From: Alphaproteobacteria bacterium
GTDB lineage: Bacteria; Pseudomonadota; Alphaproteobacteria; UBA828
Length of the DNA stretch: 64,000 nt
Assembly: GCA_963422645.2 (NCBI GenBank)
Contig: CAXXVO010000008.1
Location: 448,001-512,000, forward strand
Direction: 5' to 3'
In this document: positions 2,834-23,200 of the stretch, in pieces
Numbering within the stretch: position 1 is the first letter of the stretch
Layout: each line of letters opens with the position of its first letter
The notes under the pieces: generated by a model
The model's database searches: none
What the model was told of the DNA's origin: nothing
Seen by the model: only the letters and a program-made list of their open reading frames with translations
Translations under genes and position numbers: made by a program

Positions 2834-4346
2834 GACCGGCCTCCCTCAGGCTGTCGTAGCGCTGACAGTCGGCTACCGGCTTGTGGCGAAGCTGCAGGCC
2901 CTCGGGCGTCGGGATGATTGCCGGCGGTGCCGGCTGGCGCTGCCGGGCGAGGATGTTGAGCACCACGTCGGCGCTGCAGGCACCGCAGTCGAGCGTCTCG
3001 GCACAGGCCGCCTCAACCGCCTCCAGTCCGTCCTCCAGCACCGCCGCGAGCACCTTGACGAACTGCCGGTCGCCGTCGTCGTGGCCCGCGAGCCGGGTTC
3101 GCAGGCGGCCGAGCGCGTTGGGCAACTGCCAGTCCTTGAAGGGCGCGCCATTGCGTAGCGCGCCGGGCTTCCGCGTCAGGATCGGCACGTAATGCCACGG
3201 ATCGTAGACGAACCGGCCGCGCCCGAAGCTGCGGGGGTGCTCGGCAACGGTCTCGCCGTCCTGGCGGATGACGATCCGATCGGCATAGGCCCGCACGTCC
3301 ACCGGCCGGCCGACGGCGCGGGCCGCGACGCTGTACTGGTTGTTGTCGAAGCGCACCAGACAGGTCTTCGAGACCGACACCTCGCTGGCATGGAAGCCGT
3401 CGAAGGGGCCGCGATACGCCATCAGGAAGGGCTGCTCCTCCTCGAACACCTGCCACACCGTCTTGCCCGGGATTGTCGGATGCGGATGCTTCTTGGCGTC
3501 CTCGATGCACCGATCCATCAGCCACTCGTTGATCTCGGCGTAGGAGCGGCCCCGCGGGATGGGCACGAACAGGCGGCCGCGAAGGTCACCCACCTGCTTC
3601 TCGACCTGCCCCTTCTCCCAGCCAGCCCCTGGCGTGCACGCCACAGGCTCCACCAGATGGTGCGAGCACAGCTCCTGGAAGCGGCGGTTGTAGTCCCGCT
3701 TCTTGCCCACGAAGATCGTGCTCACCGCCGTCTTCATGTTGTCGTAGATGCCCCGCCGGCAGACCCCGCCGAAGAAGCGGAAGGCACGCTCGTGCGCCTC
3801 GAAGACCATCTCCTGGCTCTCGCGGGGAAAGATCTGGACCAGATACATCCGGCTGTGGCACAGCCGCATGTGCGCCGCCTTCACCCTGGTCGTCGCGCCC
3901 GACAGACGCGCGTACTCGTGGCTCCAGTCGAACTGGTAGGCCTCGCCGGGATCGAAGATCAGCGGCACATAGGCCTGCGCCGGCGACAACAGCCGCCACC
4001 GGCGCCGCCAGGCCCTGGCATAGCGGCGAACCGCGTCATAGCCGCCCTTGTAGCCCAGCGACACAAGGTCTTCATGAATCCGCAGAAGAGACAGCCGATC
4101 CTTGCGTGCCTTCTTCTCGTTGGCCTTCAGCTGGCGCTCAAGCTCCTCCACCCACAGCCCAAGCTTCGGCATCGGCTGGATCTTGCGCTCGTAGCTGTGC
4201 GAGGTCGCATCGCCCCGCACCACCTTGCGTATCGTGTTCTTGGAAACCCTCAAATCCCGGGCGAGCTTCTTGATCGGAACGCCCTTCACCAGATGATCCC
4301 GACGGATCTTCGCGATCGTTTCCACAACCAGCATCTCCCCCACCAC
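2820..4346 (-). CDS. istA: IS21 transposase IstA
   Basis: N-terminal HTH; QFDW, YDNMKT, EKGQVE DDE motifs. Confidence 0.95.
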
Positions 4347-16736: not shown

Positions 16737-17787
16737 ACCGCTTATGCACATGGCTCCGGTTCGATCAACATGCTGTAGGTAAGGGGTTTTGCATTGGTGG
16801 CGATGCGGAAGAGCGAGCGGAAAGCAGCGTGGCGGGTTTTGCGGCGGTTGAAGCGAAAGGCGAACTCATCGAGATAGGCCTGCAGATGCTTGCGGCGCAG
16901 CCCGTGGTAGACGCCTCGCGCCCATCCTTTGAGGTTGGAGAAGACTTGGTGGATCCACGGCAGGACGAGGTGAGCGGCGGTCTTCCCGACGACATGGACA
17001 TTGTGGCGATCGGCGGGGACCGCAGCGTAGCCGGACCAGCCGTCGGTTTTCGCGATGGCGTCGGGATCGGCGGCGGTTTCGACGAAGTGTCCGAGGTCGG
17101 CGGCGCCGTAGGAGGAGATTTCGGCCAGCCGCAGGCGGCCCGGGATGGTTCCATCCCCCAGTTCGATGGCGCCGACGATGAGCATCTTGCCGTCGTGGCT
17201 GCGTCCTTGCCCTCCGGTGGGAGGATCGTCTTTGGTCCGGAATGGAAGGCTGGCCTCGTCGATTTCCACCAGGCCCGACAACGGGTTGCGCTCGGGGTCG
17301 ACCATGCTGGCGCGCAGCTTGTGGGCGAGCAGCCAAGCGCTGCGGTAAGAGCCGATACCGAGCTGTTTCTGGAGCTGCAGGGCAGAGATGCCGTTGGAGT
17401 GGGTCGCCATCAGGTAGGCGGCCCAGAACCAGACGGTGAGCGGCAGCTTGCTGGCGTGCAGGATCGTCCCGGCCGTCACCGAGGTCTGCCGGCGGCAGCC
17501 GGCGCACTCGAAGGTGTGTGCTTTTCTGCGCAGCGCCCATCCCTTTTCATGGCCGCACGCGGGACAGACGAAGCCGTCCGGCCAGCGCATTTCGATCAGC
17601 CAGGCGGCGCAGGCGTCATCGTCCGGGAACATGTGCTGGAAGGCGAGGAGGCTGTCGGCGACCTGTTTCATGTGGTGGCTCCGTCGGCAGGAACGTATAG
17701 GCAACATTCTACCCGTTCTCCCGCCCTAACCTCAACCTCAACATCTGGTGGCAAACTCTCGCGACCGGAGCCATGTGCATAAGCGGT
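16737..17787 (-). mobile_element. IS1595-family element (1051 bp)
   Basis: 24-bp IR ACCGCTTATGCACATGGCTCCGGT; 8-bp TSD TTAGAAGA. Confidence 0.93.
16742..17671 (-). CDS. IS1595 transposase
   Basis: RWPDGFVCPACG zinc ribbon, VEIDE, TDGW, YLDEFAFRFNRR. Confidence 0.93.
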   Translation of the reverse strand: MKQVADSLLAFQHMFPDDDACAAWLIEMRWPDGFVCPACGHEKGWALRRKAHTFECAGCRRQTSVTAGTILHASKLPLTVWFWAAYLMATHSNGISALQLQKQLGIGSYRSAWLLAHKLRASMVDPERNPLSGLVEIDEASLPFRTKDDPPTGGQGRSHDGKMLIVGAIELGDGTIPGRLRLAEISSYGAADLGHFVETAADPDAIAKTDGWSGYAAVPADRHNVHVVGKTAAHLVLPWIHQVFSNLKGWARGVYHGLRRKHLQAYLDEFAFRFNRRKTRHAAFRSLFRIATNAKPLTYSMLIEPEPCA

Positions 17788-18020
17788 TTAGAAGATACAA
17801 AGTGTTGGGAATAAACATGGTAGGTCTCTCCTCATTCCGCATCAGAAGGTAGATCGTAACTGCCCAGGTACCCCCTCTCTCTTATGGAACAAGCCAGTTC
17901 CTTTTGCGTCAACGCCCCCACGCCGCGGGAGTGCCTACTCTCTTGAGCGCGAGAGGATGATGAACGCCGCGTCGCGAACAAGATGAGAGGACAGCGATAC
18001 TCAGGATGAGCCGGAGAAGT

Positions 18021-21000
18021 TCAGGAGCGCAGTATCAGACTTCCTGACCTCGTGATGCTGGCTGTTCTGGGCAGCGTGCCGGGAACTCCTTGAATTCTGA
18101 TACATTTCGGTTGTTTCAGGCGGTTTTTCGCTGGGTGTCGCGCCCGAGGTCTGATAGTATAATTTGATACCAATTGCACGGTCTCAACCATGCCCAGTAC
18201 CCTCCCAATGTGCCCTCCAGAGGCGGTCTCGATCGGCAACAGCTGCTTCGCCGTCCTGATCTCGGACGACACCTTCACCTACTTTTCCAACCTCATTCCC
18301 TTTGACAGCCACGCCGCCGATGACCGCACGGCCATGCTCTTGCGGATCGGCCGCCTCGCGGCGATCAGCGCGGTCTCGCCGCAGGAACTGGCTGACGCTT
18401 TCGCTGTCTCGCGCGCGACGGTGCAGCGCGCACGACGGCGCTACCTGGCCGAGGGCGAAGCGGGGTTCATGAAGCCCCGGCGCGGTCGCGGGCCGTCGGT
18501 GTTCACTCCGGAGTTGGCGGAGAAGGCGACGGCGTTGCTGGCATCGGGCCTGAGCGGCTCTGCGGCGGCCCGGGTTCTCGGCGTGTCAGCGCCATCGGTC
18601 AACAAGTGGCGCCGTCAGGGACTGATCGGCAACACGGAGGCGGATGGGGAGCCCGGACGCTCAGCGCTGGCTGCGCCGCCTGACGCGGGTGCGGCTCCTG
18701 AAGGCCGTGTCGATGAAGAGAGTACCGGTGCCCCGGGGCCGGAGACGGCGCCGGGGCTGGAAGCGCAGCCGCAAACGGATCGCAGCGCGCGCGATCGGCG
18801 GGACCGGCAGGCGCCGATGGGGCGTGCGACTTGCGATGTTCCGGCTCGGGTTCTGGCCAGTTGTGGACAGGCGGGGCCGGTCGAACCGCAGTTCGCCGCC
18901 GCCGCCCGCGGTGTCCGCTTCGGCGGCGTGCTCGCCGCCCTGCCGGCCCTGCTGAAGGAAGGTCTTCTCTCCGAGACCGGTCTCCTGCCATTGCTGCCGA
19001 AGGGCTATTACGGCTTGCCTACGATCCTGCTCTTCCTGGCCTTCATGACCTTGGCGCGGGTGCGCAACCCCGAGAGCCTGCGCTACCAGGCGCCGGGCGA
19101 ATGGGGCGCCATTCTCGGCCTCGATCGCTGCCCCGAGGTCAAGACGCTGCGCCGCAAGATCGCTCTCATCGCCGACGACGAGGCCGGCGTGCGGGCGTGG
19201 CAGCTCGCCCTTGCCAGGCGCTGGCAAGGCCGACGAGCCGGAGCTCTGGGCGACGCTGGCCATCGACGGGCACGTCAAGGTCTACTCCGGCCGCAAGGGG
19301 CGCTTGCCCAAGCACTTCGTCTCGCGCGAGAAGCTGTGCCTGCCGGCGAGCGCCAGCTACTGGATCAACGCTCTGGGCGGCAAGCCGCTGCTCTGTCTGC
19401 ACAAGCCGCTGGACCCGAAGATGGTCGCGGCCATCGAAGCCGACGTGGTGCCGGCGCTGCAGGAGCTTGGGATCGTTGGCGCCGGGGCGCCGGACCTGAC
19501 CGCCGAGCATCCCGGCCAGCCGGCGCTCACCCTGGTCTTCGACCGCGAGGGCTGGAGCCCGGATCTGTTCCGCCGGCTGGCGAGGCGCGGCGTCGCCTGC
19601 CTGACCTGGCACAAGAACTTCAGGGGCGAGGACTGGCCGGCCGAGGACTTCGGCGCGATGACCGTTCCCATTCACGGACCGGCGGCGGACGGCAGCGCCA
19701 CCATGCGGCTGGCTGAGAAGCCGGTGACGTTGCCGAACGGCTTCAGGGTGCGCCAGATCCGCCGCCTGCTCGACAACGGCCGTCAGGTGCCGCTGATCAC
19801 CACCGATCCGCACAAGCCGATGGCTGAGGTTGCGGGCGCCATGTTCTCGCGCTGGTCGCAGGAGAACTTCTTCAAGTACATGCGTGACGAGTTCAATCTC
19901 GACGCCCTGCCGACCCACGAGCTCGAGCCTCTCGATCCCGCCGCCATGGTCGTCAACCCGCTGCGGCGGGCCTATGACAAGGCAATCCATCGCCTCGACC
20001 GCCAGCTTGGCCGCCTGCGCAACCGCATCGCCGACACGGCCCGGAAGAAGCAGCCGACGGCGGAACTCAGGAGGGAAGTCAGGGACCTCCAGGATGTCCG
20101 CGACATCGTCAGGGCCAGCCGCAGGGAGACGCCCAAGCACTGCCGGGCCGGCGACCTCGACGAAGCCGAGCAGCTCGATGCCTTGCCCGCGCGCGAGCGC
20201 CTCCTCCTCGACGTCATCCGGATGATCGCCTACCGCGCCGAAACCCGCATGATGATTCCCGTCATGCAGGCGCAGGGCCACAAGCCCCATCCCCGGAAAC
20301 TGCTTCAAGCGCTGCTCACCGCCGATGCCGACATCCTGCCGGATCCTGGCAATGGCCTCCTGCGGGTCCACATTCTTGGCCTCGCAAACGACGCCTGCGA
20401 CCGTTGGATCGATGCGGTTCTGAGCGACCTGAACGCCACCGAAACGGTCTTCCCCGGCACCCGTCTGCGCATAGTCTACGACATCGACGGGGCCTCGGAA
20501 TCCGCGCGGCTCGTGTCACCTAAAATCAGCAGAGGTCAGGAAGTCTGAGTATAGGGATCAGCTGCATCGGTTCCGGGTGCGCCAGGATTTGCAGGATGTT
20601 CCAGCCTTGCTTTCGAGCGGTGACGATGACGCTGCGCATTCCGGCGAAGTTGCAGGCGCCTTGCAGGGAGCGGAAGCCGCCTGAGATCTTCTCATGCACT
20701 TTGTTCATACGGATGTCACGCTCCGCCTCGTTATTCGTGAACGGCGTGCGCAGGTCGGTGAGGAAGCGCAGGCAGCCCTCCTTATGCTTTTGAAGGCGGC
20801 GCGCGAGGTTGTGGCCGATGCGGCGTTTCTTTCGCCCTCGCTTTGCGATCTGGAGCGGCGGTTGGGCCTCATGGAAGGCGATGGCTTCTTCGAGGATACG
20901 GTCCCATGCCCTTGAGATGCGGGCCACCAGGGAGGCGGGGACTTGACGGTCTTTCTCACGGGCGAAGCGGGCGGCCCTGCGCGCGCGCTGAAGCAGGCGG

Positions 21001-22076
21001 TGCATGCTCGCCGCCCATTCCTCCTTCTCGATGTCGATCAGGGCCTGGAGTTCGCGCAGGTGATGTGCGTTGCAGGCGCCGTGGCGGACGCCCTTGATGG
21101 TGAAGTAGGGGGCGAAGTCGTCGTGGACGAGGATGCCTTTCAGGTTCTTTTCGACATCGCCGCGTCCCTCGCCGATGCGCAGGACGGTGAGCAACGGGGT
21201 GCACAGCACATGGAGCCAGCGGGTACGGGCGGCGATACGCAGGCCGGTCTCGTCGAGGTGCTTGACCGGCGCCTGCGTGCGGATCAGATCGGCGACATGG
21301 TCGAGGAAGCCCTCGAAGCGCTGCGCTGTGCGCCGGCCCATGGCGGCGATCGTGGCAGTGGAGATGGACACCGCGAAGATGTCGCTCATGAGTTCGGCCA
21401 GACGCTTCTCGGGCACGAACTGGGCGTACAGCAGGTAACTCACCCAAGCGGTGATGCGAGGGCCGTACTGGACCGGGGCGGTGACGCCCGGCGGGAAGGC
21501 GGCTCGTGTCAGCGTGCCGCATGCGCCGCAGAGGCAGCGATGGGCGCGGTGTTCGGTGACCTCGAGAGGCTGCGGCTCGGGTACGTCGAAGACCTGCCGA
21601 CAGGCGGGCGCGCCTTGCCGGTCGGCGTCCGAGAGCTCGACGCCACAGCCGGAACAGGTGGAGGGGTGGTGATCGACGACACGGTCCGGGCTGTCGCTCC
21701 GCGCGAGGGTGGTTCCCTTGTGGCCGGGCTGGCCGCCACTGGGCCCGCCGGACTTTCCGCGCTGGCTTTGGGTGCGCCTCTGGGCTCCGCTTTTCTTCTT
21801 GAGCCCGTCGCTGGCGGGGGGCTTGCTGCTTGTGGTGCTGTTGAGGGCCGCGCTGCGCTCGAGTTCGGCGATGCGCTCGCGCAGGGCCGCGTTCTCCTGC
21901 TCGAGTGCGGCATTTTCCCGGGCGAGCGCGGTGGCTGATCGCAGCAGCCCCTGCCCCCATTCCCGGACGGCAACGACGACAGTGGTTGCGAGGGATGATG
22001 GCTCGAGAAGCTCCTTCAGGCAGCAGAAGGCCTCGTTACGGGCGGCGAGGTCTTCGTGCCAGTGCGACACCGTCAC
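18021..22076 (-). pseudogene. tnpC: IS66 type B transposase (GTG 22076), interrupted in its last codons by the type C IS; native stop at 18021
   Basis: HLDETG, CNAHHLREL, TNNEAERD; removing the insert gives ...QLIPILRS*; the read-through product ends ...ILRLPDLC and could still work. Confidence 0.85.
18036..20547 (+). mobile_element. Type C IS, copy 2 (transposase 18190-20548, frameshift near 19228)
   Basis: Same IRs; 5-bp TSD AGTAT. Confidence 0.9.
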
Positions 22077-22738
22077 GTGTCTTCGGCCTCGACGGCCATC
22101 ATGGCGGCGAGCACGGCGAGGCGTTCGCCCGGCGGCAAGGCCTGGTAGCGCCGGCCCCAGTTGGCTGCCTTGCGCTTGATGCGCTGGCGGTCGGTGAAGT
22201 TCCGGCCTGCGTGGCTGGCCCAATGCATCCGGTCGGGGGCGTAGTTGAACCAGACGACCTCGGTTCGCACCAGACCCTGGGTCGTGACCTGCAGCGCCAG
22301 CCGGCGCCATCCCGCCAGCACCTCGTCATAGAGCGCCGACGGATGGCCCGAGATCATGACCTGGCAGGGCAGAGCCTTGAGCAGCGCGAGAAGCGCGACG
22401 TGGCCGGCCTCCTCGTACTCGAAGCGGTAGCGCTGCGCCGAGCGGCGGGTCGCGTGCAGATAGGGCGGATCGCTGTAAACCAGCTCCGGGCCCAGGAACG
22501 GGAACGAGGCCAGGAAGTCATGGGCACAGCCGTGAACCAGATCGACCGGGTAGTCGCAGACGAAGGCCTCGAGCGCCTGCGCATCGCGGTCGATGCCGAT
22601 CGAACGCACGGCCGGCGGCTTGCGCTTCATCAGCGCCCCGCCCCCAAGGTGGCTTTCGATGTAGACGGAGTGCGGCGGCATCAGCGCAATCAGCGCTTGG
22701 CACAGACCTGCTGTCGCCTTCGAGCCGAAATACCCCAT
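22073..22738 (-). CDS. Compact DNA adenine methyltransferase (Dam/D12-like)
   Basis: GYFGSK, YIESHLGGGA (SAM-binding motif I), VYSDPPY (motif IV), VMISG, TEVVWFNY. Confidence 0.88.
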   Translation of the reverse strand: MGYFGSKATAGLCQALIALMPPHSVYIESHLGGGALMKRKPPAVRSIGIDRDAQALEAFVCDYPVDLVHGCAHDFLASFPFLGPELVYSDPPYLHATRRSAQRYRFEYEEAGHVALLALLKALPCQVMISGHPSALYDEVLAGWRRLALQVTTQGLVRTEVVWFNYAPDRMHWASHAGRNFTDRQRIKRKAANWGRRYQALPPGERLAVLAAMMAVEAEDT

Positions 22739-23200
22739 GGACCGCTCCCGTCACGCGAGAGAGCAGTCCATAGTCCCGCAACTCTATGAGGTCAAGAACC
22801 AATCGCGGTGGCAGAACCAGGCCGCGGCCGCCGCCATAATCACCGTCCTCAACTCAGGATTGGGGTACCTGGGTAGTTACGGTAGATCAGCATCAGCATT
22901 CCCGCATCCGACGACCACCGCATCGTACGGCGGGGCCATACTGACACCTTATTCGGGCGGCAATTCCGGACGCTTACACATGACTAGCAACCTCCATTCG
23001 AGGGCCGCCTCGTTAAGAGCCATCTCGTAGACGCCTGTTCTCAAAACGGTGCCTGTGACCAGGGCGCGACGATGGCCGGGACATCCTTCCCGCCCGCTTG
23101 ACAGCCCAACCGTGCAAGTGCCAGCGTCGCGCTGAGCCGGCCGATCGACAGGGAACAGCCGGTAAGCGGCCGGCACGGGCGAGGACGGAGGCTGGCAAAG

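Follow-up and report, generated by a model that had tools for sequence, protein, structure and literature searches.

Introduction

IS66 is one of the large families of insertion sequences (ISs), and the roles of its accessory genes are poorly understood. The family includes canonical elements, with tnpA, tnpB, and tnpC, and the ISBst12 group, which has tnpC only. An 8-bp target-site duplication and terminal repeats starting with GTAA are its defining features. In this study, we analysed an IS66-family element in a 64,000-nt stretch of DNA, hereafter the window, from an alphaproteobacterium of the UBA828 lineage (assembly GCA_963422645.2, contig CAXXVO010000008.1, positions 448,001 to 512,000 of the forward strand). 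Like other members of the family, it encodes a TnpC with PF03050 and NF033517 domains and has an 8-bp duplication and GTAA termini. Unlike them, it lacks tnpA and tnpB and carries upstream of tnpC a gene for a 221-amino-acid (aa) protein of the Dam methyltransferase fold, a layout that is neither the three-gene nor the one-gene one.

Several ISs encode repressors of their own transposase. InsA of IS1, OrfA of IS3-family elements, and the Tn5 inhibitor are helix-turn-helix or truncated-transposase proteins that bind the element ends. Another kind of control is exerted by the host: IS10, IS50, and IS903 are under Dam control, and for IS10 and IS50 it is the host methylase that acts, with GATC sites in the ends and the promoter. 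The role proposed here for the 221-aa protein would be like that of InsA, OrfA, and the Tn5 inhibitor in that a small, element-encoded, trans-acting protein limits the transposase supply as copies rise. In contrast to those proteins, it has a methyltransferase fold and a promoter-internal operator, and its repression is one that we infer. As in the Dam control of IS10 and IS50, a protein of the adenine-methylase type is linked to transposition control, but the gene is the element's own and the methylation is putative. Transporter ISs with methyltransferase passenger genes are also on record in the passages of PMC11891212 that concern them (IS220, IS1380 family), and they share with the window element the carriage of a methyltransferase-type gene by an IS.

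The sole studied relative of the 221-aa protein is Upf31 of the IncP-1beta plasmid pBP136. In the parts of Elg et al. 2025 (PMC11997246) that deal with its activity, Upf31 is described as a costly autorepressor of its own promoter: a 68-bp fragment from upstream of upf31 acts as a promoter and gives 4.76 XylE units without full-length Upf31 and 0.09 with it. The same parts report that Upf31 induced in ER2796, an E. coli strain that has no methylases, gives no modification signal in sequencing by the single-molecule real-time (SMRT) method, and that GATC is not protected in digests, that is, there is no Dam-like protection. The C-terminal domain of Upf31 is predicted there to be a protein-binding module for KorB, and Upf31 is suggested to bind the CAGCATCG inverted repeats of IncP-1beta plasmids, among which upf31 sits. 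The term IS66 does not occur in Elg et al. 2025 (PMC11997246).

Here, we show that the window element is a mobile IS66 element whose tnpC overlaps the end of an Upf31-type gene, and that the candidate promoter in front of both genes holds an operator-like inverted repeat which is conserved among relatives and, with a single exception, confined to these promoters in the genome. What this study adds is the link to Upf31, the operator and the way in which it covaries with the protein clade, and a change of the proposed role from a methylase to an autorepressor. A widespread two-gene IS66 layout is thereby defined, in which the transposase is wired behind a Dam-fold protein with its own operator, and the enigmatic plasmid protein Upf31 is joined to transposition control, for which no earlier link was found in the literature. 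The layout itself was not described in a literature search on IS66 with methylase or methyltransferase and on passenger-gene ISs, ISfinder and REBASE being outside that search.

Structure of the element

The IS66-family element spans positions 17856 to 22880 of the window, to which all coordinates refer unless otherwise stated, and its genes all lie on the minus strand. As it stands it is 5025 bp long, including a nested, unrelated IS, whereas its uninterrupted form is 2508 bp; the unit of about 2.5 kb given in the initial annotation is thus correct once the nested IS is removed, and not for the element as it stands. Perfectly matching 8-bp copies of the target-site duplication GGTAGATC were read directly from the letters at 17848-17855 (tnpC-distal copy) and 22881-22888. 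The terminal inverted repeat on the tnpC side, GTAACTGCCCAGGTACCCC, lies at 17856-17874 on the minus strand, and 36 copies in the genome have the same termini. Its inverted partner on the promoter side, GGGGTACCTGGGTAGTTAC (minus-strand reading GTAACTACCCAGGTACCCC), lies at 22862-22880, also on the minus strand. A repeat search of the window returned the two as a pair of 20 nt with 95% complementarity (19/20 nt).

The transposase gene tnpC occupies 20526-22076 on the minus strand and starts with a GTG at 22076. Its product is an IS66-family DDE transposase that matches NF033517 (3.7e-86; 289.6 bits, cut-off 180), PF03050 (4.5e-41; 141.6 bits, cut-off 23.1), and DUF6444 (5.2e-10). Only the sequence from 20548 upward is native tnpC. 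The gene loses its last two codons to the nested IS, so that TnpC of the window is 516 aa long and ends in ...ILRLPDLC, whereas intact copies encode 512 aa ending in ...ILRS. The nested IS also severs the 180-bp non-coding 3' end of the element (17856-18035, minus strand), which matches positions 1-180 of the reference and, in intact copies, joins straight onto the sequence at 20548. The gene for the 221-aa protein, recognised from the open reading frame (ORF) list, the family profile, and the structural model, lies at 22073-22738 on the minus strand and contains SDPPY. Its TGA stop and the GTG start of tnpC overlap in a GTGA at 22073-22076 (minus strand, read directly), with three bases in common. 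A 594-aa ORF that begins at an ATG at 22310 was considered as the true tnpC and ruled out, as the homology to relatives starts exactly at the GTG.

The 221-aa protein and tnpC are the only two conserved ORFs in the 2508-bp unit, and neither tnpA nor tnpB is present upstream of tnpC in it. The whole genome has three matches to TnpB_IS66 (PF05717). None of them is inside an intact copy of the window element (family 1) or of a sister family (family 2) described below, and one abuts a truncated family-1 copy at position 40269 of contig C3. The element fits the IS66 family in the type of TnpC, the 8-bp duplication, and terminal repeats that start with GTAA, and departs from the canonical group of the family in the accessory genes. 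The anatomy proposed in the initial annotation, with terminal repeats and a perfect duplication bounding the element, IS66 membership, a DPPY protein and tnpC as the sole native genes, the overlap of stop and start, and the small gene in place of tnpA and tnpB, agrees with these results throughout.

Family and fold of the 221-aa protein

A Pfam search with the window protein alone gave no match at E 0.01 or better, and its score against the Dam profile TIGR00571 was 22.1 bits, below the cut-off of 114.85. Likewise, no match was obtained when PDB sequences were searched with the single protein (phmmer). The family profile alone matched, with values of 1.2e-9 for DpnM and 6.7e-6 for E. coli Dam; the match falls into two pieces, one over the N-terminal motif X/I region and the other over the DPPY region. 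The family is large: a search of a library of 50%-identity clusters returned 5660 clusters with E values of 1e-3 or better, of which 563 reached 1e-30 or better, and 54 of 61 diverse relatives match PF02086 at E 0.01 or better. In the alignment of these 61 relatives, H23, D90, P91, P92, H113, G178, and R184 do not vary, and at least 90% of the relatives have G32, G34, and Y93; motif I (HLGGGA) comprises residues 30-35 and motif IV (DPPY) residues 90-93.

The AlphaFold model of the protein, with a predicted local distance difference test score (pLDDT) of 92.8, has a 7-stranded Rossmann core and helices at 181-199 and 203-220, and its top Foldseek matches are E. coli Dam, Mcbe1, DpnM, and T4 Dam. 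The C-terminal two-helix domain (residues 181-220) is basic and holds the sequence RIKRKAANW. In the comparison with DpnM, only 16 profile positions (66-81) between the two matching pieces stand against 106 DpnM residues (78-183). This gap corresponds to the target-recognition domain, which is missing from the 221-aa protein; the earlier remark that the protein looked too short for a full domain of this kind is borne out. The protein can be assigned to the Upf31 branch within the Dam/DpnM (D12) methyltransferase fold, and its Rossmann core is a bare one with S-adenosylmethionine (SAM)-binding and DPPY motifs.

The homologue in pBP136 sits after an OmpA-family gene, and we identified it as upf31.0 because of this position. 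The window protein aligns with it over the full length (45% identity, 222 aligned positions, E 8e-68), and RIKRKAANW of the window protein aligns with RIKRKKARW of Upf31. The two proteins are alike in size (221 aa vs 224-225 aa) and in having a Dam-like N-terminal domain and a basic C-terminal two-helix domain with a conserved Trp. The promoter of upf31 is embedded in inverted repeats, and the candidate promoter of the window gene holds a conserved inverted repeat. They differ in context, upf31 being a plasmid backbone gene whose product has KorB as predicted partner, whereas the window protein heads an IS66 transposase operon without KorB. The repeats differ as well, that of upf31 being of the CAGCATCG type and that of the window element YATAG-N10-CTATR.

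The clear Dam/DpnM fold and the SAM-binding and DPPY motifs, invariant or nearly so in the 61 relatives, might suggest that the protein is active as an orphan DNA methyltransferase of the N6-adenine type whose site is short or relaxed, and that it marks host and element DNA at large for anti-restriction, methylome change, or the control of end binding. Public records label relatives as 'DNA adenine methylase', and conjugative plasmids, on which orphan methylases are common, often carry relatives: the small protein matches 196 plasmid records, all at less than 60% identity, and 134 of these plasmids are conjugative. Nevertheless, we consider this explanation unlikely. The 221-aa protein has no target-recognition domain and no Pfam match and, at 22 bits, falls far short of the 115-bit cut-off of TIGR00571. 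Furthermore, the terminal repeats are without a conserved candidate site, and an IS would presumably be unable to protect incoming DNA before being expressed. In the reported experiments of PMC11997246 that bear on this point, Upf31, the sole studied relative, was SMRT-negative in methylase-free E. coli and gave no GATC protection.

Copies in the genome and relatives in other genomes

The genome comprises 5.9 Mb in 23 contigs, with an estimated contamination of 8.5%, and copies were located in it by BLAST with the uninterrupted element as query. Besides many fragments, it contains 36 full 2508-bp copies with identities of at least 99.7%, 22 of which are flanked by a perfect 8-bp duplication. 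The small protein is 221 aa long in all 36 copies, and tnpC encodes 512 or 513 aa in 34 of them. The sister family, family 2, has 82% DNA identity to family 1 and is represented by 19 copies with a common 2356-bp core. It runs on to the same kind of terminal repeat, its length being read as 2461 bp, and 8-bp duplications are readable at two examples. Family 2 has the same two genes with the same GTGA overlap. In total, 75 full-length copies of the small gene were found in the genome with tblastn. For the small gene, the ratio of nonsynonymous to synonymous substitution rates (dN/dS) between the two families amounts to 0.23, compared with 0.24 for tnpC, and the small gene is thus under purifying selection of the same strength as tnpC.

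In a sub-lineage of three copies, the small gene is disrupted by a +1 frameshift, with one additional G in the G-run that encodes motif I (L077, L078, and L079, around position 3590 of each), and each of the three copies has its own 8-bp duplication. This sub-lineage could be a real defective lineage or, alternatively, a homopolymer error common to long-read copies. As the frameshifted copies still inserted, the small protein does not seem to be needed in cis, and it might have been supplied to them by intact copies in the same genome.

The genome also contains about 93 copies of a 1738-bp IS66-like unit, whose TnpC is 55-60% identical to that of the window element and which is without the methylase-like gene. 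In one example (L123, contig C16:126900-129100, positions 135-1872 of the extracted piece), its TnpC is frameshifted and no obvious GTAA ends are seen. Elements of families 1 and 2 repeatedly abut the GATTTGTCAT end of this unit.

A scan of one genome per species yielded 80 loci that encode a small protein with 68-95% identity to that of the window. Their hosts are Alphaproteobacteria, Gammaproteobacteria, metagenome-assembled genomes labelled Tectimicrobiota, Dehalococcoidia, Binatia, and Pontiella, and many of the scanned genomes with such loci have multiple copies. In 72 of the 80 loci, the small gene is followed directly by an IS66 tnpC; two of the other eight were opened (L067 and L073), and both are cut by other insertions. 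A pair of inverted repeats starting with GTAACT[AG]C is identifiable at 51 loci, with a perfect 8-bp duplication at 36 of these. Methyltransferase-like genes paired with tnpC within GTAAC inverted repeats, a search for which had been suggested in the initial annotation, are therefore found well beyond this genome. The GTGA overlap (gap -4) is conserved in all 23 distinct alpha-type loci with an intact junction. In the gamma-type lineage, the small gene and tnpC do not overlap and are separated by 10-36 nt; its small protein is 68-70% identical to that of the window, whereas its transposase is just 28-32% identical. Because of this divergence of the gamma type and the existence of the gene-less 1738-bp unit, the presence of the small gene does not follow the transposase tree. 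In the protein tree, which was based on a quick search, the IS66-linked small proteins form a single clade (100 in the Shimodaira-Hasegawa-like approximate likelihood ratio test, SH-aLRT), nested among plasmid-borne relatives with the same operator type.

The position of the small gene in place of tnpA and tnpB, its translational coupling to tnpC in all alpha-type lineages, and its travelling with tnpC in 72 of 80 loci would fit an accessory subunit of the transpososome that replaces TnpA/TnpB and binds TnpC or the ends of the element. Such a function would also fit what a part of PMC11997246 says of Upf31, whose C-terminal domain is predicted there to be a KorB-binding module. However, the three frameshifted copies transposed and acquired duplications of their own, although supply in trans is possible, and the ~93 copies of the 1738-bp unit arose with a related TnpC and without any small gene. 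In addition, close relatives function on plasmids and chromosomes without being part of an IS, and the gamma-type genes are spaced apart rather than overlapping. An accessory subunit thus seems very unlikely.

Some neighbourhoods of more distant relatives were also inspected. Several plasmids of Sphingomonadaceae, among them one from Sphingobium, have a homologue of the small gene (51% identity) that precedes a transposase gene of the IS1380 family (ISSp1-like) by 200 bp (L114, 2495-4771). In the Upf31 half of the protein tree, a small Dam-fold gene overlaps, by an ATGA, a gene for a 257-aa Ogg-type helix-hairpin-helix glycosylase-like protein (PF22175, 4.4e-13; L092, 1498-3652, and also L093, L117, and L119), and a nitroreductase-like gene is convergent on the small Dam-fold gene. 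The neighbours found on a megaplasmid of P. aeruginosa and on a plasmid of Synechocystis are a nitroreductase-family gene, which carries no name in the Synechocystis record, a 7-cyano-7-deazaguanine synthase gene, and a PfkB kinase gene. The neighbourhood in the Upf31 half may be an undescribed DNA-modification island.

The promoter and its inverted repeat

A candidate promoter with an embedded operator-like inverted repeat lies at 22767-22795 on the minus strand, about 85 bp inside the left end, and is the sole promoter-like element upstream of tnpC. It consists of a -35 hexamer TTGACC (22795-22790), the half-sites CATAG (22788-22784) and CTATG (22773-22769), and a -10 hexamer TATGGA (22772-22767), with a spacer of 17 nt. 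When the left ends of nine lineages were aligned, alpha and gamma types had hardly anything in common but GTAACTAC at the terminus, a TTGAC-N2-CATAG-N10-CTATG block, and the coding sequence. Among the 79 loci with enough upstream sequence, the exact block is present in 61 and the core ATAG-N10-CTAT in 75, the latter corresponding to 25 of 29 distinct upstream sequences. The repeat is also nearly exclusive to the element: YATAG-N10-CTATR occurs at 80 sites in the whole genome, against about 3 expected from base composition, and 79 of the 80 are at these promoters.

Related genes on plasmids of Xanthomonas, Photobacterium, and Lichenicola are likewise preceded by a YATAG-type repeat. At the same place, upf31 of pBP136, the P. 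aeruginosa megaplasmid gene, and two chromosomal genes have a CATCG..CGATG palindrome after TTGACA. This split between YATAG and CATCG matches the two halves of the protein tree, a quick tree as noted above. The repeat type thus tracks the protein clade and not the genomic context, as one would expect of a repeat that is read by the protein. No CATAG/CTATG motif lies near the element ends, and within the element the motif was observed 3 times, compared with 2.7 in shuffles, which is the chance level.

A conserved operator-like repeat at the element's own promoter points to regulation. The initial annotation had instead pictured a mobile epigenetic IS that shields its transposition intermediates from restriction or changes the host methylome, and such a role is disfavoured by this repeat and by Upf31, which is SMRT-negative and an autorepressor in the relevant parts of PMC11997246. 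Its further suggestion, a regulation of end binding, does not agree with the location of the conserved repeat, which is at the promoter and not in the terminal repeats.

The small gene could also be plain cargo, a self-regulated plasmid cassette of promoter, operator, and gene that was captured once by IS66 and has no role in transposition. The single IS66-linked clade (SH-aLRT 100) among plasmid relatives with the same operator type is what one capture would leave, and small proteins of 68-70% identity between elements whose transposases are only 28-32% identical suggest cassette movement; ISs with methyltransferase passenger genes are moreover on record (IS220, IS1380 family), as mentioned in part of PMC11891212. 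However, nothing promoter-like other than the captured promoter lies upstream of tnpC, whose start overlaps the stop of the gene. As the promoter of the cassette feeds tnpC through the overlap, its regulation also regulates the transposase and cannot be neutral for the element. Together with purifying selection on the small gene as strong as that on tnpC, this makes the cargo explanation highly doubtful.

A possible off-switch of the transposase

We propose that the 221-aa protein is an autorepressor which throttles the coupled transposase and thus acts as the element's own off-switch, a proposal whose chances of being right we judge to be about even. A single promoter would drive the 221-aa gene and then, via the stop/start overlap, tnpC. 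The protein would bind YATAG-N10-CTATR, probably as a dimer, and as the repeat fills the spacer and the -10 region, binding would shut the transcription of both genes. The repressor would act in trans, every copy of the element damping all others, and with the ~75 gene copies and 79 operators in the genome the result would be a copy-number-dependent self-limitation of transposition. Since the frameshifted copies still moved, a regulator fits better than an essential transposition factor.

Several points weigh against this proposal. Autorepression and the absence of detectable methylation are known for the homologue Upf31 only, and we infer repeat binding, repression, and a dimeric state for the 221-aa protein; Upf31, moreover, is just 45% identical, belongs to the other half of the tree, and has a different repeat. 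The near-invariant SAM-binding and DPPY residues argue for retained catalysis, which would be unnecessary for a pure repressor. The 1738-bp IS66-like unit attained about 93 copies without any such gene. Among the upstream regions inspected, those of the Sphingobium and Methylomonas plasmid relatives show no clear repeat. A consensus promoter/terminator scan of 20400-22900 called no site, the promoter being missed because the -10 hexamer TATGGA fails the position-6 rule of the scan. Measured between their centres, the half-sites are 15 bp apart, a distance that departs from the one-turn spacing usual for a simple dimer. Finally, CTATG overlaps the -10 hexamer, and part of its conservation may be due to promoter function alone.

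Alternatively, the protein may be a methyltransferase whose sole substrates are its own operators, which would bind YATAG-N10-CTATR as a dimer and methylate a promoter adenine, forming a private Dam-like switch. The fully methylated promoter would then be off, and the hemimethylated state just after replication would allow the transposase to be made for a brief time, an effect that host Dam has on IS10, though here it would occur in hosts without Dam. The negative SMRT result for Upf31 would be explained in this case, because so long a site would be absent from the E. coli test strain. We regard such operator-only methylation as improbable.

The operator that varies with the protein clade offers a concrete DNA target to test for Upf31 and for transposition control. 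If the autorepressor proposal is true, a methyltransferase fold has been recruited as a sequence-specific regulator of a selfish element, and the element would provide a simple one-promoter, two-gene system for asking whether enzymes without a target-recognition domain still methylate. In that case, the layout may also help to explain how an element can attain dozens of copies in IS-rich genomes without death of the host.

The nested element and the surroundings

The unrelated IS nested in the window element is 2512 bp long and lies at 18036-20547 on the plus strand; it was delimited by Pfam and repeat searches and by its copies in the genome. It has 17-nt perfect inverted repeats, CAGACTTCCTGACCTC, and is flanked by AGTAT, a 5-bp duplication, at 18031-18035 and 20548-20552. 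The window copy has a frameshift in its transposase (PF21804). The genome contains 67 full-length copies of this IS, 34 of them with a 5-bp duplication, and a single ORF of 785 or 786 aa is present in 10 of the 67, the ORF being split in the rest, the window copy among them. In 5 of the 19 family-2 copies, this IS is inserted at one and the same site. As to transposition of the 5-kb composite of IS66 element and nested IS, two other places in the genome have the left junction, and none has both junctions.

An IS1595-family transposase gene (NF033547, 7.5e-55) at 16742-17707 on the minus strand is separated from the IS66 element by about 150 bp, and the window as a whole is a nest of ISs. The IS load of the genome is extreme, with at least four families of 19 to about 93 copies each, many of them inserted inside one another.

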